From the IMG/VR virus record IMGVR_UViG_2609460053_000007: a stretch of DNA of 9,340 nucleotides, one strand, 5' to 3'. Numbering within the stretch: position 1 is the first letter of the stretch; each line of letters begins with the position of its first letter. Positions 1 to 9,340 of the stretch are shown one piece after another. The translations under genes and the position numbers were made by a program. The notes under the pieces were generated by a model. That model was given only the letters and a program-made list of their open reading frames with translations, was not told the origin of the DNA and made no database searches. This DNA is from a virus. Taxonomy: Monodnaviria > Loebvirae > Hofneiviricota > Faserviricetes > Tubulavirales > Inoviridae.

Positions 1-150
1 AAATTTCCATATGAAGTATTACACCCGCAACATGGGATTGAAATTTTAGCGGGACTAAGCTTTGGAAGCAAAACTAAATACCGAATAAAACTCATATGGG
101 ATGACAATTATAAAAAAAGGAATGAAGAGGAGTTTTTCATTTCTATATAA
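1..150 (+). CDS. 5'-truncated copy of the C-terminal 49 codons of the 159-aa membrane-anchored protein (duplicate of 9092-9241)
   Basis: Sequence identical to 9092-9241 and in frame with the 8762-9241 ORF. It is truncated by the window edge, not necessarily a real pseudogene. Confidence 0.6.
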   Translation, partial: KFPYEVLHPQHGIEILAGLSFGSKTKYRIKLIWDDNYKKRNEEEFFISI

Positions 151-181
151 ATTGGTTCGCACAATGACGTTATGCTAAAGA

Positions 182-218
182 GGCCGCTGCGGGATACGAT
201 TTTCGCAGCGGCCTTTTC
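182..218 (+). terminator. Rho-independent terminator-like hairpin after the plus-strand accessory operon (copy 1)
   Basis: Perfect 10-bp GC-rich stem GGCCGCTGCG (182-191) / CGCAGCGGCC (204-213), 12-nt loop, followed by TTTTC (214-218). Lies 32 nt after the stop of the 159-aa ORF in the second copy. It could alternatively be an ori or packaging hairpin. Confidence 0.6.
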
Positions 219-247
219 AACATAACGAGTCGTACATTATGCGCACC
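215..247 (-). other. dif-like XerC/XerD recombination site (candidate attP) with extended central region
   Basis: Minus strand reads GGTGCGCATAA-TGTACGACTCG-TTATGTTGAAA. The XerC arm matches E. coli dif (GGTGCGCATAA) 11/11 and the XerD arm matches TTATGTTAAAT 9/11. The central region is 11 bp instead of 6 bp. The dif sequence is quoted from memory. Confidence 0.65.
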
Positions 248-281
248 AATGGTAAGGATGGCAGAATCTGGCGGGAATCGT

Positions 282-309
282 TGACACTGGCCGTCAACTG
301 GCTACTATC
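282..309 (+). promoter_or_regulatory. Candidate sigma70 promoter (TTGACA-16 nt-TACTAT) overlapping an inverted repeat
   Basis: -35 TTGACA at 282-287, 16-nt spacer, -10 TACTAT at 304-309. The -35 sits inside the inverted repeat GTTGAC (281-286) / GTCAAC (294-299). Predicted start near 316, reading antisense to the ORF 388-582. Confidence 0.35.
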
Positions 310-378
310 GACAGTGATTCAAAATCATCCGTTTCTCCAAACGAATCAGAATCAAATGTCTGTCAGCAGTAAGTGAAC

Positions 379-401
379 GGCCTGACCTCACCAATCAGGC
401 C
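379..401. repeat. Inverted repeat / hairpin GGCCTGA-(9 nt)-TCAGGCC
   Basis: Perfect 7-bp stem 379-385 / 395-401. The stop codon of the minus ORF 388-582 lies in the loop. Followed on the plus strand by TGTTCATCC. Possible terminator for a short plus-strand transcript or an ori/packaging hairpin. Confidence 0.35.
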
Positions 402-582
402 TGTTCATCCAGTTAGTTGGTAAATCTGTACCTGATACACGAGAATCAAACACCACTTCTTCAGTGCCATCACCATGATGCCGGAATGCTGGATCTTTAA
501 GAAGCATCACTTTCAGCTCCTGATGTGTCATGAATTTTTCCATGATAAGCCCCGATGAATGCTGCCGCGCCGAATCAGCCAT
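388..582 (-). CDS. Hypothetical small protein (64 aa; possibly 47-51 aa from internal ATGs), cargo position
   Basis: ORF in the six-frame track. No convincing SD before the first ATG; the internal starts (MEKF.., MTHQ..) have weak GGGG/GGAA upstream. No recognisable motif. May be a spurious ORF in a structured non-coding region. Confidence 0.3.
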   Translation of the reverse strand: MADSARQHSSGLIMEKFMTHQELKVMLLKDPAFRHHGDGTEEVVFDSRVSGTDLPTNWMNRPDW

Positions 583-727
583 AACGCTGAAAATGGAAAC
601 TGTACGGCTTGGCCAACCCCGGACAGCAACAAAACAAGTTTTGTCACTGACCGGCGTTATCTTTCAAAACAGACAGTTAACGATTTTTTGTCTGGTGTTT
701 ATGCGTGAAATTTCGTGCGTACGAAAT

Positions 728-976
728 TCACCACCAATAAACAAACGGACGATGACTGACCGGAAAAGCAATGCCGTCAGCATCATGACCACGCATTACC
801 TGATTGAGAAGCCTTCTGACTTCACGACGCTCAGGCCTGGTCATCATCATATTGCGATACCAGGACGGCGATTTATCAAACCATCTGGCACAACTGGCAA
901 AATGTGAACCTACACGACGATAAGACTTAAGGCGGCCACCGGGAAGTCGGTCACGCGCCTTATTTTTTACAGACAT
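728..976 (-). CDS. Hypothetical small basic Arg/Trp-rich protein (82 aa), cargo position downstream of gIV
   Basis: ORF with a good RBS (GAGGA, 6 nt before the ATG at 974-976). Same orientation as the core genes. No recognisable domain. Confidence 0.45.
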   Translation of the reverse strand: MSVKNKARDRLPGGRLKSYRRVGSHFASCARWFDKSPSWYRNMMMTRPERREVRRLLNQVMRGHDADGIAFPVSHRPFVYWW

Positions 977-1064
977 AATAAATCCTCTAAGTAACTGAAT
1001 ACCTAGAAGATGTCGTACTGTTCATACCCCATAAAAGTTAACGCCATAATAAAAATCCATACAA

Positions 1065-2309
1065 TCAGTTCAGGTTGTCCCGGAACAGTTCACCGCTCCT
1101 CGCGGCGCTGCGGGGCGTCGCCCTGCTCCGGTCAACCTTTCTGACCTGAAGCATCACCATAATATCAGTCTTGTTGCTTTCACTGGTACGGGAACCGAAG
1201 AAGCTCCAGCCGGAACTGGCCTTACTGTCTTTCTGTTCAGCAAGGCCACCAAGTAAAATAATATCACCATCTGCAAGGCTGACTTCGGTTGTTACATCAC
1301 GCTTGATAAGGGTTGGCGAGTTATTGACGCCGGTTTCAGTGGTCACAAAGTTGGAAAGCTGCTGCTGAATCTTGAGATCCATTGTCCGACTTTTGATTGA
1401 TGGCGTCACGTTAAACAAAACACCGCTGGAACGATATTCAACGGATTGCGTTGTCGTATTGTTATTCACCGTAACACTGCCCAGTACTGGCACATCAGAG
1501 CCGACTGAAAAAGACGCTGAGGCATTATTTTTTACCCGCAGTCGTGGCGCACTGACAACAGTAAAACGACTGTCGGTTTTCAGCAGATTGAAAATGGCAT
1601 CAATGGAGCCGGTTCGAATATTGATAAAATTATCCAGTCCGGCAGCACCAACTGAAATATTGAATTTATCAGACAGAATTTTAGCCGCTAAAAGAATGCC
1701 GGAGCCGTCAGACTGCGAGGTCTGAACCTCAAAAACATAACCAGAAACAACCACTTCATCACTCATCGTATCCAGCGAAGTGACCAGTGTTTTCAGGATG
1801 GCGATATCCTCTTTCGTACCATAATAAACCAGAATATCACCGGTTCGATTGATGTAGTTGCTTGCCCCTGATGAACCTTTTAGCGAATCGTCAGAAATCA
1901 CGGCTCCACTGTTATTGAAGGAGCCTGAAACGTAGCCGCCAAGAATATCAGACAGGTAGGCAACAGAACGGTACTGAGGCGTATAAGTCCATGTATAACG
2001 TGGCTTAACCGGCTCTTTCGGCGTATAGGGCGCGATAAAATCAACACCCTTTTTCGTCCATATTCGAATGTTCATATTGCCAAGATAACGGGTTACAAAT
2101 TCCCGTTCATCAATATCAGGTGTTAACCTGAATGTAATCATTCGTTCATCATTAACAAGCTGTGGATCTAGCATATACGGGACTTTAAGCACCTCACTGT
2201 AAATAAGAGAAATAGCCTCCGGTAGCTTGACTTTATTTAATTCAAGCTCTGACCCTGCGAAAGCACATGAAGAAAATAGTAGCGTTAATGCGAGTAAAAT
2301 CTTTTTCAT
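1065..2309 (-). CDS. Phage-encoded secretin (pIV-like) for virion extrusion
   Basis: 414 aa; N-terminal signal peptide MKKILLALTLLFSSCAFA with AxA cleavage motif; C-terminal secretin-like region (VVSAPRLRV...DGDIILLGGL...). Last gene of the morphogenesis block, as in Ff phages. Start ATG overlaps the gI stop (TAATG at 2307-2311). Confidence 0.85.
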   Translation of the reverse strand: MKKILLALTLLFSSCAFAGSELELNKVKLPEAISLIYSEVLKVPYMLDPQLVNDERMITFRLTPDIDEREFVTRYLGNMNIRIWTKKGVDFIAPYTPKEPVKPRYTWTYTPQYRSVAYLSDILGGYVSGSFNNSGAVISDDSLKGSSGASNYINRTGDILVYYGTKEDIAILKTLVTSLDTMSDEVVVSGYVFEVQTSQSDGSGILLAAKILSDKFNISVGAAGLDNFINIRTGSIDAIFNLLKTDSRFTVVSAPRLRVKNNASASFSVGSDVPVLGSVTVNNNTTTQSVEYRSSGVLFNVTPSIKSRTMDLKIQQQLSNFVTTETGVNNSPTLIKRDVTTEVSLADGDIILLGGLAEQKDSKASSGWSFFGSRTSESNKTDIMVMLQVRKVDRSRATPRSAARSGELFRDNLN

Positions 2310-3334
2310 TATTTTTTCCCCGTATAAAGCGTCACACGCTCACCATCAATAATTCCGCTCATCAACATCCCTTTGTAATTAAAACTGGATGCAGGAACGG
2401 CACGCAAAACACCGGCACCATTAACAAGAATCACAAACGCCCTGCCTTCACTGGTCATTCTCCCTGATATACGCCACTCGGTTGAAAGTGGCGGTTCAGC
2501 TGGTTCTGAGGGAGTATCTGGTGCTGGAGTAGCAGCGGAAGAACGAAACATGGCCGCATCACGTACATCTGTTGTAGTCAAATCTGGCGAGGGATCGCTT
2601 CGGCCAAACGTGCTGAAAAATGAGTAAATCAGCCAGCCTGACCCGATAAACATCAATGGAAAAAGCACAAGAAAGAACCTGACTTTGCCAGAATTCCAGA
2701 TGCTCTGGCGTTTATCTGTCTGCTTTTCATTACCGTTATTTCCTTCATAACTTTTGTAAAGTTCAAAAATATCAGGGTTATATTTATTGCGATAACTGGT
2801 GACGAGGTTGCTTTTATAGATTTTGTGGCCTGAATATACGTCAATGCAGTAATGATTATTCAGGCCCAACGCTTTCAGCTTGCGCATCCGGTAAGTTGTT
2901 TCTATTTTGTCTTTCAGAAAGCGAGCAATATTAGAAAGTGACTGATTTACAATAACCAAATCACAGCTAATACCCGTTTCAGGGTGCGTAAAATGACGAT
3001 GTTCAGCAATAAATGATTTCTTCTCAGCCGTCATATCCTTATCGCTACCGAAGATTCGCCATGCTTCATCAATAACAATTAAATCACCAAACTGGCAAAA
3101 GCTCCCTTCCCCACCTTTAAAAGGAAAGAAATCTGCTTTAAGCACATCATCATTATCCACAACAATAATTTCTCCCGTTGCATCAGGATAACGTTCGGTG
3201 ATTTTATCTTTTTGTAAACCATAAATGTTCGTCACAACTCTCCGGCCGCTGGTAAATGCCGGAATAATGACATTGCAAACGGCTTCATAACTTTTTCCTG
3301 AGCCGGGTATGCCAATATATGCAGAAATAGCCAT
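2309..3334 (-). CDS. Zot-like assembly ATPase (pI-like)
   Basis: 341 aa; Walker A GIPGSGKS near the N-terminus, Walker B-like LIVIDEAW, single TM segment (FFLVLFPLMFIGSGWLIYSFF) in the C-terminal half. Position between gVI and gIV. Confidence 0.9.
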   Translation of the reverse strand: MAISAYIGIPGSGKSYEAVCNVIIPAFTSGRRVVTNIYGLQKDKITERYPDATGEIIVVDNDDVLKADFFPFKGGEGSFCQFGDLIVIDEAWRIFGSDKDMTAEKKSFIAEHRHFTHPETGISCDLVIVNQSLSNIARFLKDKIETTYRMRKLKALGLNNHYCIDVYSGHKIYKSNLVTSYRNKYNPDIFELYKSYEGNNGNEKQTDKRQSIWNSGKVRFFLVLFPLMFIGSGWLIYSFFSTFGRSDPSPDLTTTDVRDAAMFRSSAATPAPDTPSEPAEPPLSTEWRISGRMTSEGRAFVILVNGAGVLRAVPASSFNYKGMLMSGIIDGERVTLYTGKK

Positions 3335-3337
3335 AAC

Positions 3338-3625
3338 TCACCCTATAACAGGAATACGTCGAATAATAAAACGAGTAGCCATTGCGGAGATAATCATACT
3401 AATCCCCTGTGGTAATTTACTCAGGTTAATGAAGTACCAGAATCCGTCTGATAAATTGGCAAACAGCGATGAGAGATTGCTTGAATCTGGCAGTAACTCA
3501 ACAAGGATTTCAACGAAGCCCTGGACTACAAAATACAGCGCAAAGAATACGACGAATTTAATAATCAATGACCGGAATACAAAACCTAACAAAGTATTTA
3601 ATGCACTAATCAGAATCCCAAACAT
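3338..3625 (-). CDS. Minor coat protein pVI-like (hydrophobic)
   Basis: 95 aa, strongly hydrophobic with multiple TM-like segments. Position between gIII and gI. Weak resemblance to f1 pVI (recalled from memory). Confidence 0.7.
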   Translation of the reverse strand: MFGILISALNTLLGFVFRSLIIKFVVFFALYFVVQGFVEILVELLPDSSNLSSLFANLSDGFWYFINLSKLPQGISMIISAMATRFIIRRIPVIG

Positions 3626-3637
3626 AGTTGCACTCCT

Positions 3638-5350
3638 TTAGGCACTCAGAATAATACGGAGCGCAACAAATCCCCATATAATCAGAAATATGGTTTCTAC
3701 GGCGCTTCTGTTCTGCTCAATTAACGGACAATGGGAGTCAATTCTGTACTGGTGATTAAACACGCTGAATTCAACAACGGGGCAGGATGCTGAACGAGAG
3801 CCGATGTTAAATTCGTTTGTAAAAGGCAACAAATTAATAATTGGCGTTAAAATATCTCTTGCCGTTGGCGTTTCTTCAAGCTCAGGCTCTTTTACACCGG
3901 GATCTTCTCCCAAATCTATATTGCCATTATTTCCAGTGTCAGATCCTGAGTTGTTATTAATGGTAATATCAATATTGACGTCAGCCCCTGCACTGTCAGA
4001 TACAGGTGAAAGCATATCTAATAACGTTGGAGATAGCCTAAGTTCCGACATCGCAGAAGTTACTTCAGCCGGTGAAACCTCTTTAAACGGTAAGCCGTTA
4101 TAATCGGCATTAACGGCAGCTTCAGACCACAGCTCGTTAATCATGTCGGCAAGAAGTGCTGGCGATACACTAACACTATCAAGATACTCCAGATAATCAA
4201 TCATGGACTCAATATTTCCAGCCTCCAGTACTTCCGTCATGGCTTTATATTTGGTATTGGTCCAGATAGTAAGCTCACTCTTTTCATCAATATCTTTTGC
4301 GGTGTAATCCTCTTTTTCAGGAACGGCACAAATCGTCGAATATCCACCATTTGACTGATTAGTCGTTTTACAAGGCGTGTTGTGATACTGATATTGCTTT
4401 CCTGCTGTTAAATAAGCAACGCTGTAATACATGGGAAGCCCTGCTACATTTTCATACATGGGAATACCTGCGGGAAATGAAGATGCGGCCGGGTTGCTAT
4501 ACAAGTGTGTAATCTCAGGTATTTCATAAAATGAGGAAGGATAAGTAAACTTATAATTCTGTTCAGTAAAGGATACATCTCCATTACTGTTGACAACTTT
4601 ATTCGTCACAGTGCGTTCAAAATTCGTTAGTGTTTCAGTATAAGTACGCGAGTTATAGTCATTAAGATAATTTCTGGCAATTTCAGTTGGATTATCACCA
4701 TAGTAATAAATTAGCTCTTTCGAATCCTGATAATAATAAAGTGCATTATCTGGCGTGGAATATCCTGTTTCAACACCTACAACTGGAGAACCCGCATCCA
4801 CATTATTACGACTAACATGAAGGATTACCGGACTTAATTCCTGTGGTTCAAAATTAACGGTTATCGTCTTACTTTCACCACTTTGACCACTGTACGTTAC
4901 TTCATATAAATTATCGGAAATCTTTTTACCGTTAGTCATTACCATTACCGAGCCGTCAGATGAACTCAAAGAAGACGGAACAAAAGATGATACAGCAGCA
5001 GCAATACCCGCCCACGTTGCAACACCGCTCATTTTGTATGATGAGGCAGCAGGCAAGTATTCGGCAGCATTAGCCGCAGCGCGGCCAACAAAAACACGGG
5101 TTGCTGTAAGCTGTGATGCCGTATAAATCGCATCATTGGCAGCAAAGCGACGAACAAGCACCCGGCCAACGACTTTAGGAATAACAGCCCGCGCAGCCAC
5201 TGCTGCAATTGCTGGTACAAATGAATATGAATATCGGGGAAAGGAAACCCAGAGAAAGGAAAAAATAAAGGAATAAACCGTCAGCCTCTTAGCCCAAGAA
5301 TAACGACATAAGCTGAGACGATCCCCCATAAAAGGGAACCCAATTTCCAT
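3638..5350 (-). CDS. Adsorption / receptor-binding minor coat protein pIII-like
   Basis: 570 aa as drawn. Asn/Gly/Ser-rich linker (NNNSGSDTGNNGNIDLGEDPG) and C-terminal hydrophobic anchor (IFLIIWGFVALRIIL), typical pIII architecture. SD GGAG 7 nt before the ATG at 5348-5350. An alternative start at the ATG 5030-5032 (M107) would give a 464-aa product. Confidence 0.75.
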   Translation of the reverse strand: MEIGFPFMGDRLSLCRYSWAKRLTVYSFIFSFLWVSFPRYSYSFVPAIAAVAARAVIPKVVGRVLVRRFAANDAIYTASQLTATRVFVGRAAANAAEYLPAASSYKMSGVATWAGIAAAVSSFVPSSLSSSDGSVMVMTNGKKISDNLYEVTYSGQSGESKTITVNFEPQELSPVILHVSRNNVDAGSPVVGVETGYSTPDNALYYYQDSKELIYYYGDNPTEIARNYLNDYNSRTYTETLTNFERTVTNKVVNSNGDVSFTEQNYKFTYPSSFYEIPEITHLYSNPAASSFPAGIPMYENVAGLPMYYSVAYLTAGKQYQYHNTPCKTTNQSNGGYSTICAVPEKEDYTAKDIDEKSELTIWTNTKYKAMTEVLEAGNIESMIDYLEYLDSVSVSPALLADMINELWSEAAVNADYNGLPFKEVSPAEVTSAMSELRLSPTLLDMLSPVSDSAGADVNIDITINNNSGSDTGNNGNIDLGEDPGVKEPELEETPTARDILTPIINLLPFTNEFNIGSRSASCPVVEFSVFNHQYRIDSHCPLIEQNRSAVETIFLIIWGFVALRIILSA

Positions 5351-5382
5351 AATTCAATCTCCATAATAACCTCAAGTAAAAC

Positions 5383-5401
5383 GGGCGATATTGCATCGCC
5401 C
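5383..5401 (-). terminator. Terminator-like hairpin downstream of the major coat protein gene
   Basis: 7-bp stem GGGCGAT/ATCGCCC with 5-nt loop. On the minus strand it is followed by GTTTTACTT. Ff phages have a strong terminator immediately after gVIII. Confidence 0.5.
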
Positions 5402-5414
5402 ATGAATAATGAAT

Positions 5415-5648
5415 TTATGCGGATTTAACGGTACGCAATACCCAGCGAACGCCAGCGACACCGGCATAAAGTGTTACCAGTGAAGCAGCAACGGCCATAA
5501 TCGCAACCAGAACTGTACTGAAATCAATGCTGTTCGTCAGCGGCGATAAATCAACACCACTTGATGCCGCTCCTTCTGCAGCGAAAGTCGCGCCAGAAAC
5601 AGCCATTAATGCAGGTACAGCCAGAAAACTAACGATTTTTTTAAACAT
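5415..5648 (-). CDS. Major coat protein pVIII-like
   Basis: 77 aa; signal peptide ending AxA (..SGATFA|AEGAAS), acidic N-terminus of the mature part, hydrophobic core (VLVAIMAVAASLVTLYAGVAGV), basic C-terminus (RWVLRTVKSA). SD GGAG 8 nt upstream. Confidence 0.9.
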   Translation of the reverse strand: MFKKIVSFLAVPALMAVSGATFAAEGAASSGVDLSPLTNSIDFSTVLVAIMAVAASLVTLYAGVAGVRWVLRTVKSA

Positions 5649-5682
5649 AACTCTATCTCCATTACATTTTAAAGGTTCGCAT

Positions 5683-5934
5683 TCAAGCAGTACGAACCAT
5701 CTTTATTACCTGTCCCACACCTACAGAAAAAAGCCAGAGCAGCAGGACAGAGCCAAAACCTAATGTCCAGTAATTTCCCATTGCAGAATAATCAATTTGA
5801 TGAAATGGTTCAGAACGTACCATTATTGCCTGACATTCTTTTGCATTGTTCGCATTACATAAATAACCTTCAATACGGTAACCATTTTCAGGAATATGAT
5901 TATCAAACTGAATATCGAAACCTGATGCATCCAT
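5683..5934 (-). CDS. Small protein with C-terminal hydrophobic helix at the pVII/pIX position (putative minor coat protein)
   Basis: 83 aa with C-terminal TM-like segment WTLGFGSVLLLWLFSVGVGQVI. Lies between gV and gVIII where Ff phages encode pVII/pIX. ATG 2 nt after the gV stop. Confidence 0.5.
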   Translation of the reverse strand: MDASGFDIQFDNHIPENGYRIEGYLCNANNAKECQAIMVRSEPFHQIDYSAMGNYWTLGFGSVLLLWLFSVGVGQVIKMVRTA

Positions 5935-5936
5935 AA

Positions 5937-6254
5937 TCAGCCTTTTATTTCAGTAATGCCGCCATCTGATGAAATGTTATAAGTTACTCCTTCCCTCCCC
6001 TCCATTGACCAGACGCGAACATATACAGGTATCTGGACTAACTTACCGATAAAATTATTTGCCTGATTCATTACACCGGCATTAACAAGAGCCTGAGATA
6101 CACGAATAATAATCTGGTCTTGCTTAGTGCCGCCAAAACCATCAGGAATCTCTAAGCCAACACCAATTTCATTATAGTATCCCTGACCATTGACCTTATT
6201 ACGCTGGCGAGCACCAAGCATTTTACCTTTTACAAAAAGACCATAATTAGACAT
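5937..6254 (-). CDS. Putative ssDNA-binding protein (pV-position)
   Basis: 105 aa, immediately downstream of gII and upstream of the coat genes. Assignment is by position and size only; no clear similarity to f1 pV was recognised. Confidence 0.55.
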   Translation of the reverse strand: MSNYGLFVKGKMLGARQRNKVNGQGYYNEIGVGLEIPDGFGGTKQDQIIIRVSQALVNAGVMNQANNFIGKLVQIPVYVRVWSMEGREGVTYNISSDGGITEIKG

Positions 6255-6265
6255 ATCACTCTCCT

Positions 6266-7318
6266 TTAATGCCAGTTACTGGCATGTGAAATACGGTTAT
6301 AATCGAAAATTAAACCTTTCTCATAAACCCATGATGGAATTTTGGCTGGTTTGGCTTCAAGAGTACGAACCAACGGAACAACGTTATTAGAATCCGGTGA
6401 CTCACAATAAAAGTTAATATCTATTCCGAAAGAAAGTAATTCTTTACGGTGTCGGTAGAATGTAGGTTTCGGTAACATCTCTTTCATGTTCGCGCCCTGC
6501 TTCCACAATAAATATGTAGACTGTATTTTTCTTGGGAGATTAATTATTTTTTCATCAGTTAATATAGTATTTTGATTCATTTCTATTCTCCCTACATAGT
6601 CAGAGAATAATTTATTGGGCGTCTCAATATTCCAGCTATTACCAAGCGTAAGATTCAAATCAATTAATTCAGTTGTTCTTAATGTTAATTCAATGCGTAA
6701 TTTATCTTTTGACCAGTCCAGTAAACCAGCTTTAACGAATTCGTCTGCCATCTGGTGCCCTTTTTTGCCAGATGTATGCTCATCATATTTTGAATAAAAT
6801 TTCAGGCTCCAACGACGGGAGTTTTTCCCTAAGTAAACAGTGCCACCTTTACCACAGGCGCGACCGTGGCGAGTTTTAGCTTTAAATTCTGCGGCATATA
6901 ACCATGCGCGGACATTTTCTAATGTTGACAATGAATACATGTAATTGATATCGATGCGCGAGATCTTAAATTGCCCTTCCATGACCTGCCGATAGGATGG
7001 TAGATCATGAGGAATATGCAGTAATGCCAATATTCTGGCGTAAGCTGTTAACACCAACCCTTGCAAATCGTCGGAACCGATAACAGAGTGACCTTGCAAA
7101 AACTTTGATGGATTACCGTCAATGTAGAGATGTGTTGCCCGACCTTCACCATCAGATCCAACAGACCTTACTTTCATTGTGGACTCATGCGAACCGCGAA
7201 CGGTCAACCGTTTTACTGTTTCCCACTCCACTGCACCGTCAGCATCGACGCTGACGACACTACCAGCCGGTAACGGTCGGTGTGTGCAAGGCAGGATTCC
7301 GGTAAACCAGTCGATCAT
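6266..7318 (-). CDS. Rolling-circle replication initiator (pII / RstA-like)
   Basis: 350 aa; N-terminus MIDW... and motif KFLQGHSVIGSDDL resemble f1 pII (MID..., KVLQGHNVFGTTDL, recalled from memory). First gene of the minus-strand block, divergent from the HTH regulator. Confidence 0.85.
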   Translation of the reverse strand: MIDWFTGILPCTHRPLPAGSVVSVDADGAVEWETVKRLTVRGSHESTMKVRSVGSDGEGRATHLYIDGNPSKFLQGHSVIGSDDLQGLVLTAYARILALLHIPHDLPSYRQVMEGQFKISRIDINYMYSLSTLENVRAWLYAAEFKAKTRHGRACGKGGTVYLGKNSRRWSLKFYSKYDEHTSGKKGHQMADEFVKAGLLDWSKDKLRIELTLRTTELIDLNLTLGNSWNIETPNKLFSDYVGRIEMNQNTILTDEKIINLPRKIQSTYLLWKQGANMKEMLPKPTFYRHRKELLSFGIDINFYCESPDSNNVVPLVRTLEAKPAKIPSWVYEKGLIFDYNRISHASNWH

Positions 7319-7344
7319 AAGTAGTCACACCCATCAAAATATGT

Positions 7345-7416
7345 GTCAATAGTCATTTGTGAGCAGATTGAATGGTCACAATGTAATATGCTCAGTTCTG
7401 ACAGTCAATACATTTG
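7345..7416. promoter_or_regulatory. Imperfect direct repeats GTCAATA(GT)CATTTG: candidate operators in the divergent control region
   Basis: gtcaatagtcatttg at 7345-7359 and gtcaatacatttg at 7404-7416. The second overlaps the predicted -35 of the gII promoter. Confidence 0.35.
7380..7408 (-). promoter_or_regulatory. Candidate sigma70 promoter for gII (minus strand)
   Basis: On the minus strand: -35 TTGACT (7403-7408), 17-nt spacer, -10 TACATT (7380-7385). Confidence 0.4.
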
Positions 7417-7427
7417 CAATGTTTAAA

Positions 7428-7457
7428 TTGTCAGAAATGAGCATCAAATCTAACTAT
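7428..7457 (+). promoter_or_regulatory. Candidate promoter for the HTH regulator gene
   Basis: -35 TTGTCA (7428-7433), 18-nt spacer, -10 AACTAT (7452-7457). Weaker match than the gII promoter. Confidence 0.25.
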
Positions 7458-7489
7458 TGAAAAACCACTGTTAAGATGGAGCCAAGTAG

Positions 7490-7936
7490 ATGGGCAACAA
7501 TGAGCATGAAGTTATGGCGGACAAACAGAGAGCAGAACGTATCAAAAAGGTAATTCTGGAACACTCGACTTATGAAGAACTGGCCAAGAAGACTGGCATT
7601 AGCGTGAGTACGCTGGTCAGGATAGCGTCCGGCAAAACTGAACCTAAATTCAGTGACATCATTCAGATAGCTAAAATTACGGGTGCAGACTTAAACACCT
7701 TAGCTTATGGCTATGCTCTTGATGTTAAAGAAGAAGCTACCGAGCGGAAGCTAATCACTTCTGCGGATGGATATACTGATGAAGAAACCACTAACGCACA
7801 TAATTTCATCGTGTGGAACATCAGGACACTGGAAAAACAAGATATTCTGGCACTCGCAAGGCAGGTTTCTGCCTTAAGTTCATACACTTACAGTACTAAA
7901 ATGTTTATGAAAAAAGCGGTGTCTGGAGAAGAGTAA
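7490..7936 (+). CDS. HTH XRE/Cro-CI family transcriptional regulator, putative phage repressor (RstR-like position)
   Basis: 148 aa; helix-turn-helix signature EELAKKTGISVSTLVRIASGK plus a C-terminal extension of about 70 aa. SD GGAG 8 nt upstream. Divergent from the replication gene, as rstR is from rstA in CTX-type phages. Confidence 0.8.
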   Translation: MGNNEHEVMADKQRAERIKKVILEHSTYEELAKKTGISVSTLVRIASGKTEPKFSDIIQIAKITGADLNTLAYGYALDVKEEATERKLITSADGYTDEETTNAHNFIVWNIRTLEKQDILALARQVSALSSYTYSTKMFMKKAVSGEE

Positions 7937-7947
7937 AAGGATTAACA

Positions 7948-8001
7948 GTCTCAGGAATGAGACAAACGTGCAGTATTACCAACACTGCACGTTCTTTATT
8001 G
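7948..8001 (+). terminator. Tandem hairpins after the regulator gene (terminator or operator palindrome)
   Basis: GTCTCA-GGAA-TGAGAC (7948-7963), then a perfect 10-bp stem AACGTGCAGT (7965-7974) / ACTGCACGTT (7984-7993) with 9-nt loop, followed by CTTTATTG. Confidence 0.5.
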
Positions 8002-8035
8002 TGCGAATTTTGAACAGTGAAAAAGGATCAAAAGG

Positions 8036-8458
8036 ATGAGTAGAAATAACGAAACAAGCGGCGTTGAACTGGTTGTCGTGGGCGTATTTGCTTTCTGTCT
8101 GGCAGTTGTTGCCTGGCTAATGAAAACTTTCGATGTTGAATGGCAAACAGCGCTGGAAACTGCGCCTGGCCTGATAGTGTGGCTGCTTGTTGTCGGGGCG
8201 GGGATCTTTTTCGGGATCAAAATGGAAACAGGCCTTGTTCGCTGGGGTGCTCCACTGGCGATCGCCCTTCTGATTCCGGTATTCAAACCAATTCTTAAGG
8301 AAGCTGCCGGAGTTCGTGAAACGGGTGGGCTGGTTTTCGATGATATGGTTTCGTGGTACGGAACTGGCTGGGGAATGTCGTTGATGTTTTTCGGAATTCT
8401 TATCATCGGATACGGGATGCTTTATTGGTGGCACAGAAGAAATTCATATTACTGGTAA
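8036..8458 (+). CDS. Hypothetical integral membrane protein, about 4 TM helices (accessory operon gene 1)
   Basis: 140 aa; hydrophobic segments at about residues 12-29, 45-61, 70-83 and 112-132; aromatic/basic C-terminus WWHRRNSYYW. SD AGGA 8 nt upstream of the ATG. Confidence 0.75.
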   Translation: MSRNNETSGVELVVVGVFAFCLAVVAWLMKTFDVEWQTALETAPGLIVWLLVVGAGIFFGIKMETGLVRWGAPLAIALLIPVFKPILKEAAGVRETGGLVFDDMVSWYGTGWGMSLMFFGILIIGYGMLYWWHRRNSYYW

Positions 8459-8486
8459 TCAATAAAACGTAGAAGAGAGGAAATAT

Positions 8487-8762
8487 ATGAAACTGAATCC
8501 TGAGAAATACAATAGAAATATCACCCTGCTATGTCCTGTGTGCGGAAATACAGAGATGGAACACGAGGAAGAGTCTGAAGTCGTCAGATGTGTAGGCTGC
8601 GGGAAAGAATTCACTAATGATGAGTTAATCCAAGAAAACGGGGTGAGTATTGACGCCCATGTGGATGAGATAAAAGAAGAGTTAACAAAAGATATTCAAA
8701 AACAGTTTAACGACATGCTCAAAAAGGCATTTAAAGGAAGTAAAAATATAAGGATTAAATAA
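8487..8762 (+). CDS. Hypothetical zinc-ribbon protein (accessory operon gene 2)
   Basis: 91 aa; Cys16-x2-Cys19 ... Cys35-x2-Cys38 (CPVCG-x15-CVGCG); acidic middle and Lys-rich C-terminal helix-like tail. Strong SD AGAGAGGA upstream. Stop overlaps the next start (TAATG at 8760-8764). Confidence 0.7.
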   Translation: MKLNPEKYNRNITLLCPVCGNTEMEHEEESEVVRCVGCGKEFTNDELIQENGVSIDAHVDEIKEELTKDIQKQFNDMLKKAFKGSKNIRIK

Positions 8763-9241
8763 TGACAACAAGTGATGCCATCGCTTTAGCTGCGCTTGTA
8801 GTATCGATTTACACTATCATATCATCAGAAGTGAAGTCGAGAAAAAGTGATAGAGAACAAAAGGTTATAAAGGATGAGCAAGACAGATTACGTAAGTTGC
8901 TTCTGGAAAAAGAAACAAAGTCAGCAATTAATGAGATGAAGGCTGAGCTTGGTGCCCGCCTCGTAAAAATAGCCAAAAACAACTATAGACTCAAGATATT
9001 TAATAGAGGGAAAGTTGAGGCTAAAAATATAGAGATTCATTTCCCTGATAACGATGGCAATGAATATCTTTCCATGCATGATGTAGAAGATAAATTTCCA
9101 TATGAAGTATTACACCCGCAACATGGGATTGAAATTTTAGCGGGACTAAGCTTTGGAAGCAAAACTAAATACCGAATAAAACTCATATGGGATGACAATT
9201 ATAAAAAAAGGAATGAAGAGGAGTTTTTCATTTCTATATAA
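8762..9241 (+). CDS. Hypothetical N-terminally membrane-anchored coiled-coil protein (accessory operon gene 3)
   Basis: 159 aa; N-terminal hydrophobic helix (AIALAALVVSIYTIIS), highly charged K/E/R-rich helical region, then a C-terminal domain. Start is translationally coupled to gene 2. Followed by the strong hairpin at 9273-9309. Confidence 0.7.
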   Translation: MTTSDAIALAALVVSIYTIISSEVKSRKSDREQKVIKDEQDRLRKLLLEKETKSAINEMKAELGARLVKIAKNNYRLKIFNRGKVEAKNIEIHFPDNDGNEYLSMHDVEDKFPYEVLHPQHGIEILAGLSFGSKTKYRIKLIWDDNYKKRNEEEFFISI

Positions 9242-9272
9242 ATTGGTTCGCACAATGACGTTATGCTAAAGA

Positions 9273-9309
9273 GGCCGCTGCGGGATACGATTTTCGCAGC
9301 GGCCTTTTC
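9273..9309 (+). terminator. Rho-independent terminator-like hairpin after the accessory operon (copy 2 of 182-218)
   Basis: Identical to 182-218: 10-bp GC stem, 12-nt loop, TTTTC tail, 32 nt after the stop codon at 9239-9241. Confidence 0.6.
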
Positions 9310-9338
9310 AACATAACGAGTCGTACATTATGCGCACC
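9306..9338 (-). other. dif-like XerC/XerD site (copy 2 of 215-247)
   Basis: Identical to 215-247; the window ends 2 nt beyond the XerC arm. Confidence 0.65.
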
Positions 9339-9340
9339 AA

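Follow-up and report, generated by a model that had tools for sequence, protein, structure and literature searches.

A candidate CTX-type hairpin attachment site in a dif-integrated filamentous phage of the Ypfφ/CUS-1 family

Phage genome and attachment region

The window, i.e. the whole stretch of 9,340 nucleotides analysed here, consists of one 9091-bp unit plus a 249-bp overlap, positions 1-249 being identical to 9092-9340. According to a Pfam scan of its 14 ORFs all genes expected of an inovirus lie on the minus strand, while the plus-strand ORFs comprise an HTH repressor-like gene plus three small ORFs. The features relevant for this study are the following.

154-180, plus strand: attP2-like inverted dif-like site, with XerC-like arm GGTTCGCACAA (154-164), spacer TGACG (165-169) and XerD-like arm TTATGCTAAAG (170-180)
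154-247, minus strand: whole predicted forked hairpin, attP(+), based on fold prediction and covariation
181-214, no strand assigned: inner GC-rich stem-loop with an 11-bp stem (181-191/204-214) and a 12-nt loop (192-203), then TTTTCAAC
215-247, minus strand: attP1-like dif-like site, with XerC arm GGTGCGCATAA (237-247), 11-nt spacer TGTACGACTCG (226-236) and XerD-like arm TTATGTTGAAA (215-225)
233-249, no strand assigned: crossover region TACATTATGCGCACCAA, identical between the phage and E. coli dif plus flank
1065-6254, minus strand: inovirus structural and assembly gene block
1065-2309, minus strand: secretin pIV (Pfam; RefSeq annotation of identical copies)
2309-3334, minus strand: Zot/pI (Pfam; RefSeq annotation of identical copies)
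3338-3625, minus strand: DUF2523/pVI-like protein (Pfam; RefSeq annotation of identical copies)
3638-5350, minus strand: large pIII-like protein (RefSeq annotation of identical copies)
5415-5648, minus strand: coat protein (Pfam; RefSeq annotation of identical copies)
5937-6254, minus strand: G5P-like ssDNA-binding protein (Pfam; RefSeq annotation of identical copies)
6266-7318, minus strand: rolling-circle replication initiator pII (Pfam Phage_CRI 1e-73, G2P_X_C 4e-34; 100% identical to the Y. pestis NCTC5923 copy)
7490-7936, plus strand: divergent HTH repressor-like gene, placed like rstR; a variable cargo module comes after it and extends to 9241 (PMC4266046)
9245-9338, minus strand: second copy of the hairpin, lying in the 249-bp terminal overlap

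The Pfam scan detected no recombinase domain in the 14 ORFs and returned only inovirus replication, structural and assembly domains plus the HTH domain. The pIII-like ORF has no Pfam match; it encodes 570 aa if translated mechanically, the RefSeq product of the identical gene being 520 aa with a downstream start. Positions 150-8016 of the window are 98.9% identical over 7922 nt to the Ypfφ prophage of Y. pestis NCTC5923 (locus L003, 8742-bp period), showing the near-identical core of ~7-8 kb that defines the Ypfφ/CUS-1 group; Ypfφ and CUS-1 were described as 99% identical over 7.1 kb (PMC4266046). Ypfφ differs by its unit of 8.7 kb compared to 9091 bp, and the only portion not shared is 8017-9091 plus 1-149, the cargo adjoining the attP2-like side. 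Judged by its sequence, the phage is a filamentous phage of Enterobacterales belonging to the Ypfφ/CUS-1 family, the likeness to CUS-1φ of E. coli O18:K1:H7 being drawn from the published description of that phage (PMC4266046). The unshared cargo differs among the relatives and covers most of a 140-aa ORF, a 91-aa zinc-ribbon protein and a 159-aa ORF; RefSeq assigns the zinc-ribbon protein to the 'ECs_2282 family', and it shows a weak Lar-like Pfam match below the cut-off.

By megablast the phage collection contained no nucleotide match to the whole window, Ypfφ and CUS-1 not being separate records there, and a comparison of the window with Rfam was likewise negative. Judged by pII, I2-2 (Lineavirus I22) comes closest among deposited phages, with 57.8% identity over 98% of the protein and no nucleotide-level match; I2-2 is not known to integrate. 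A stretch of 135 bp within the HTH gene (7529-7663) is 92.6% identical to plasmid HTH genes, two E. coli/Salmonella plasmids being listed, and this match may explain most of the 408 plasmid records, most of them conjugative, that fall into the 90-95% identity band.

Integration at dif and position of the crossover

The plus strand of 215-247 reads TTTCAACATAACGAGTCGTACATTATGCGCACC and the minus strand GGTGCGCATAA TGTACGACTCG TTATGTTGAAA. Comparison with E. coli dif, GGTGCGCATAATGTATATTATGTTAAAT, i.e. GGTGCGCATAA TGTATA TTATGTTAAAT as read by us in E. coli chromosomes and as published (PMC2731167), confirms what the original prediction had stated for this site, namely a XerC arm identical to that of dif, a XerD arm matching at 9 of 11 positions and a spacer of 11 bp. 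A pattern search with the two E. coli dif arms and an 11-nt gap matches 215-247 and 9306-9338, both on the minus strand and each with two mismatches, both in the XerD arm; the same pattern gave no match in 200 dinucleotide-preserving shuffles. The identity of 1-249 with 9092-9340 bears out that there is one such site per 9091-bp unit and that the window ends 2 nt beyond the XerC arm. The TGTA of TGTACGACTCG, placed beside the XerC cleavage site, matches the centre TGTATA of dif. Since the XerC arm of the E. coli host is identical to the phage arm, the window taken by itself reads the same as attP and as a hybrid junction.

The genomic context shows where the element resides. At least 80% of the window is present in 86 of 5426 complete E. 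coli genomes (about 1.6%), at dif, where copies are single or tandem, in agreement with the array suggested by the original prediction. Strain GON1437 (NZ_CP132022, locus L001) carries a single prophage beside hipA: on its left, an intact dif, ATTTAACATAA TATACA TTATGCGCACC, is directly followed by window position 248 onward, and on its right the whole hairpin region is followed by TTATGCGCACC AA and then by non-phage sequence. FDAARGOS_1303 carries three copies in tandem, bordered on the left by an intact dif and on the right by the hairpin, which lies next to hipA; the copies are 100% identical to the window except for a 54-bp insertion near 481-485 in each. The window matches the last copy of this array, and its end coincides with the last base that phage and chromosome have in common there. 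A synthetic empty site composed of left flank, dif and right flank is contiguous in 288 E. coli genomes, and intact dif flanks the element in 15 loci. All examined integrated copies, from E. coli, Yersinia, Klebsiella, Photorhabdus and a plasmid, are joined to their target exactly through the hairpin site.

A relative of the phage also exists in circular form. The record in question, annotated as an 'untypable plasmid' of E. coli TUM14759 (NZ_CP128883, locus L049; circular, 9565 bp), represents the episomal form of this relative, which is 98.8% identical and has its attP arranged in the same way; its cargo module differs from that of the window. In another related phage, L031, the contig ends overlap within the XerC arm and centre.

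Two further observations concern the E. coli loci. The insertion point of the 54-bp sequence in FDAARGOS_1303 lies inside the minus-strand ORF 388-582, and the period of this array is 9144/9145 bp compared to 9091 bp. In GON1437, the prophage is separated from hipA by a segment (12163-14930 of L001) that contains an ISNCY transposase pseudogene and a SIR2-family gene. The hipA-side border of this segment is a truncated hairpin, which retains the attP2-like site, stem and XerD-like arm but has 52 unrelated nt in place of the centre and XerC arm; this looks like the relic of an older dif-integrated element with the same attP.

Targets whose XerC arm deviates from that of the phage allow the crossover to be located. 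In Y. pestis the internal junction carries the phage arm GGTGCGCATAA, and the outermost junction carries GGTGCACATAA and then the phage centre. K. pneumoniae plasmid p1 (NZ_CP132684, IncFIB/HI1B; loci L050/L051, ~65.9-84.9 kb) contains a tandem array of a 98.7%-identical relative with a 9504-bp period in a plasmid Xer site, for which we reconstructed the target AGTGCGCTTAA TGTACG TTATGTTAAAT; here the left, regenerated-side junction reads ATTTAACATAA CGTACA plus the phage arm TTATGCGCACC, and the right, hairpin-side junction reads phage centre plus target arm TTAAGCGCACT, the target arm being AGTGCGCTTAA. The Y. pestis and Klebsiella junctions together confine the exchange to the 7 nt TACATTA, which lie inside 233-249 and include the point of XerC cleavage (minus strand, between 236 and 237). 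Across hosts, the top-strand XerC arm of the outer junction varies (AGTGCGCATAA, AGTACGCATAA, GATGCGCATAA, GGTGCGCCTAA, GGTTCGCATAA) and the partner arm hardly changes across loci; a host-varying top arm is expected if it is swapped with the arm of the target at each integration.

The Klebsiella array constitutes a filamentous prophage carried on a large IncFIB/IncHI1B plasmid. In Y. pestis, the flank past the outer XerC arm (969-992 of L003, AAGGTAACGATAGGCGGAATCTGG) resembles window 248-271 (AATGGTAAGGATGGCAGAATCTGG), which may reflect an older phage relic or a flank captured by the phage. The dif of CO92 is listed as GGTGCGCATAA... (PMC2731167) and the outermost arm of L003 (993-1003) is GGTGCACATAA; the published CO92 dif may be phage-regenerated and bear the arm of the phage.

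These junctions leave the nature of the phage substrate aside. A route on single-stranded DNA and a route with a single XerC exchange on duplex DNA give the same product, so that junction sequences do not separate them. According to a VGJφ-like model, the duplex replicative form would be the substrate, XerC and XerD would bind duplex 215-247, XerC would swap one strand pair with dif, and 154-180 would be irrelevant or part of a terminator. This model agrees equally well with the junction anatomy and the crossover position, a circular episome exists, and superinfecting Ypfφ was reported to insert preferentially between resident copies, at the 'imperfect dif' junction (PMC4266046).

An inverted partner site and a predicted forked hairpin

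An inverted repeat of 168-191 with 204-227 pointed to a second dif-like site at 154-180, in inverted orientation and separated from 215-247 by 34 nt. This provides the second inverted half-site of a CTX-type hairpin whose search had been proposed originally, and the pair folds in a CTX-like manner. The 154-180 site has two mismatches per arm, four in total, and sites with at most four mismatches occur 0.007 times per shuffled genome; from this frequency and the distance of 34 nt to the first site, we rejected a chance origin.

The minus strand of 154-247 is predicted to fold with -31.2 kcal/mol (z = -7.8), none of 200 shuffles folding as well. The complementary strand folds more weakly (-29.1 kcal/mol, z = -5.8), because three G·T wobbles in the arms become A·C there. 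The structural genes have the minus strand as their sense strand; for an inovirus this makes it the packaged (+) strand, pII defining the coding strand. In the predicted fold the XerC arm forms a duplex that contains, in the E. coli and the Yersinia versions, a single G·A mismatch and a single G·T wobble, and the XerD arm a duplex with two G·T wobbles and one A·C mismatch. The centre is predicted as 11 nt over 5 nt, being paired only at the two base pairs beside each arm. In terms of this model, the central bulge is asymmetric (11/5 nt), its top strand being the 11-bp spacer, and the putative terminator stem is the inner helix of the attP hairpin. Each of the three G·T wobbles is kept in most or all of the 18 sequences (15, 17 and 18, respectively), a bias which fits selection acting on the predicted (+) strand fold. 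One of them lies at position 8 of the XerD arm (window 218/177), where the top arm has a G, dif having an A, opposite a T on the phage (+) strand; the same wobble is found at this position in the related phage L005 and in attP1/attP2 of CTXφ, and it may be a functional quirk common to folded attP sites.

The inner stem had originally been taken for an operon terminator. A GC-rich stem does follow 31 nt past the stop of the last plus-strand ORF, but a consensus terminator scan made no call on 181-214, because the loop has 12 nt and only four T follow; the stem-loop may nevertheless double as terminator of the plus-strand module ending at 150. That a stem-loop comes right after the last plus-strand ORF and is followed by TTTT would suit a reading in which the locus has no present function, the inverted dif-like pair being a scar of past recombination beside an ordinary terminator hairpin. 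We give this reading hardly any credence: besides the missing terminator call, every integrated copy examined uses exactly this site for joining its target, and the site is kept in episomal/circular forms.

Related loci that contain the hairpin region number 30-odd and come from Yersinia, Klebsiella, Photorhabdus, Brenneria, Phytobacter and viral contigs. Identity within the hairpin amounts to 83-99% even for relatives with genomes that are ~72% identical or mostly unalignable and with unrelated cargo just before position 150, leaving the hairpin as a conserved island; compared to the Ypfφ copy of Y. pestis, the hairpin of the window differs by one loop base. Positions 154-180 are nearly invariant in relatives. 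Free variation is limited to the loop and to the interior of the 11-nt bulge (variants TGTACGACTCG, TGTGCGACTCG, TGTGTGACTCG, TGTCAACGCG with a 1-nt deletion, and TGTGCCACACG), while the arms themselves, the TGT beside the XerC arm, invariant in all relatives, and the CG beside the XerD arm are fixed.

This pattern bears on a TLC-like model, according to which a duplex site of GGTGCGCATAA, the 6-bp centre TGTACG and a degenerate XerD arm ACTCGTTATGT would be used, a proper XerD arm not being needed. TGTACG is the exact central region of the Klebsiella plasmid target and its TGTA is common to dif. The spacer interior nevertheless varies freely and even loses one base (TGTCAACGCG, TGTGCCACACG), and the TTATGTTGAAA arm is conserved, paired with the partner and placed 11 nt from the XerC arm (10 nt in one group of relatives). 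TLC-type integration is furthermore reversible and XerD-first (PMC4246890), and we see no sign of such an exchange at the loci studied here; we judge the model very improbable.

To assess covariation we counted the stated in-register structure on 18 distinct sequences. Paired cells amount to 93.4%, and five pairs changed on both sides. These compensatory changes lie in the XerC arm (columns 4/92), in the XerD arm (columns 29/72) and, in Brenneria, at three pairs of the inner stem. In all five covariation measures the observed value exceeds those of 500 out of 500 shuffles and of any slid register. Most of the double changes stem from the Brenneria loci L006 and L030, and we regard the covariation as supportive but not decisive for the fold.

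Stronger support comes from hairpins of unrelated sequence that follow the same design in the related phages L005 (1-110), L004 (4976-5100) and L031 (1-110). Their top spacers have 9-11 nt starting with TGT, their bottom spacers have 6 nt starting with TG, compared to 5 nt in the type found in the window, and the inner stems differ. In L005, AGTGCGCACAA TGTGATCAAGA TTATGGTGAAT lies opposite AATGCGCACAA TGCAGA TTATGATAAAT, giving spacers of 11/6 nt and a predicted fold of -38.6 kcal/mol (z = -6.3); L004 and L031 have spacers of 9/6 nt.

Some of these records need comment as to their origin. L005 and L007 are contigs of metagenome-assembled genomes labelled 'Aerococcus sp.' and 'Candidatus Nanosynbacter sp.', respectively, which carry phage with pII 96% and 86% identical, L007 also containing an E. 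coli-type dif; their placement in bins of a Gram-positive genus and of Saccharibacteria is almost certainly mis-binning. A ~4.9-kb segment between two hairpins in locus L020 was considered as a non-phage satellite and dropped; its tandem ORFs of 344 and 420 aa look, by size alone, like Zot and secretin of a truncated inovirus copy.

Taken against the VGJφ-like duplex model, these data leave much that it does not account for, i.e. the near-invariance of 154-180, the compensatory changes in the arms, the G·T bias of the (+) strand and the recurrence of a two-site architecture with unrelated sequences. Xer core sites use spacers of ~6-8 bp, and the 12-bp attP1 of CTXφ is unsuitable as duplex (PMC4246890); accordingly, we consider a duplex substrate improbable. 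The argument for a single-stranded substrate combines the conservation of the partner site, covariation, strand bias and analogous hairpins with the 11- and 5-bp spacers, reported to be unusable as duplex (PMC4246890, PMC3089051).

Proposed integration mechanism and relation to known systems

Our data support a model, to which we assign a probability of about 0.85, according to which the minus-strand site 215-247 supplies one half, the attP1-like one, of a CTX-type attachment site used in a CTXφ-like integration mechanism. The original prediction of a phage attP of a Xer-exploiting element thus holds as to Xer exploitation and integration at dif in E. coli, but 215-247 would be one half of attP rather than the whole. 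In the circular (+) ssDNA, i.e. the minus strand of the window, 215-247 would pair with 154-180 around the 11-bp GC stem, yielding a forked hairpin in which the XerC and XerD arms are both duplex and the centre is asymmetric, with 11 nt facing 5 nt. Host XerC and XerD would bind this mimic of dif, and XerC would exchange the top strand with chromosomal dif, aided by the TGT(A) shared with TGTATA; replication would then turn the resulting pseudo-Holliday junction into an integrated prophage. On one side a functional dif would be regenerated and stay open to further integration, so that repeated integration would build tandem arrays. The other side would hold attP2 and attP1 as a duplex pair; their spacers of 5 and 11 bp do not suit Xer recombination and would therefore render integration effectively one-way. 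New genomes would arise by rolling-circle replication across tandem copies. We infer the single-stranded substrate, the catalysis by XerC only, the replication-dependent completion and the irreversibility from CTXφ (PMC4246890, PMC3089051, PMC3442271), the system in which, among those compared here, the mechanism was shown experimentally.

The likeness to CTXφ extends over several levels. Both phages have an inverted pair of dif-like sites, one with a longer and one with a shorter spacer, namely 11/5 nt in the window and 12/7 nt in the CTXφ El Tor sites, AGTGCGTATTA TGTGGCGCGGCA TTATGTTGAGG and AATGCGTATTA TACGCCA TTATGTTACGG (PMC3089051), CTXφ spacers being given as 12 and 5-7 bp (PMC4246890, PMC3089051). 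In both, the TGT beside the XerC arm matches the centre of the host dif, a G·T pair lies at XerD-arm position 8, the phage has no recombinase, and tandem arrays occur with a regenerated dif on one side and two dead sites on the other; with dif integration, this product anatomy and the predicted (+) ssDNA fold, the phage shows the features of a CTX-type element. Differences concern the dimensions, the arms being ~90 nt apart in a hairpin of ~150 nt in CTXφ compared to 34 nt and ~94 nt here, as well as the enterobacterial hosts and dif, the I2-2-like replication protein and the own secretin of the phage studied here.

VGJφ- and TLCφ-type phages likewise use XerCD at dif and have no integrase of their own, but they possess a single duplex site with a usable short centre and integrate reversibly (PMC4246890). 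In the phage of the window the only spacers are 11 and 5 bp, neither being usable as duplex, and the inverted partner is conserved. The closest counterparts are Ypfφ (CUS-2) of Y. pestis and CUS-1φ, with which the phage has in common dif integration, regenerated dif, tandem arrays and the inverted XerC/XerD pair (PMC4266046). Ypfφ integrates at dif and rebuilds an intact dif (PMC4266046), and both phages have been classed with CTXφ as using ssDNA and XerC only and as integrating irreversibly (PMC4246890, PMC3089051). A limited literature search found no biochemical or genetic test of the folded site in the Ypfφ/CUS-1 family, the reviews using the words 'potential' and 'proposed'.

As a summary, the site represents the already described attachment type of Ypfφ/CUS-1 and adds no new biology as such; a scan working on the sequence alone picked out a Xer-hijacking attachment site correctly. 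Ypfφ and CUS-1 were reported to have modest effects on the fitness of Y. pestis and ExPEC (PMC4266046). The crossover markers in Y. pestis and Klebsiella as well as the unrelated hairpins with bulges of 9-11/5-6 nt provide useful support for a mechanism which is proposed by analogy to CTXφ. The preferred insertion of Ypfφ between resident copies is not predicted by the simple CTX model. We tentatively propose, as a rather doubtful extension, that the hairpin is a portable targeting module, rewritable by the host, that also enters multimer-resolution sites of plasmids, and that the inter-copy junction with its 11-bp spacer could be a secondary Xer target. If so, the top-strand XerC arm would be replaced by the arm of the target at each integration and the partner arm never exchanged, which would explain why the top XerC arm equals E. 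coli dif exactly and the partner arm is still Pectobacteriaceae-like, GGTTCGCA(C/T)AA. The insertions of Ypfφ between copies would then fit an inter-copy target, a non-canonical Xer substrate, and the phage could travel on large plasmids via their multimer-resolution sites.
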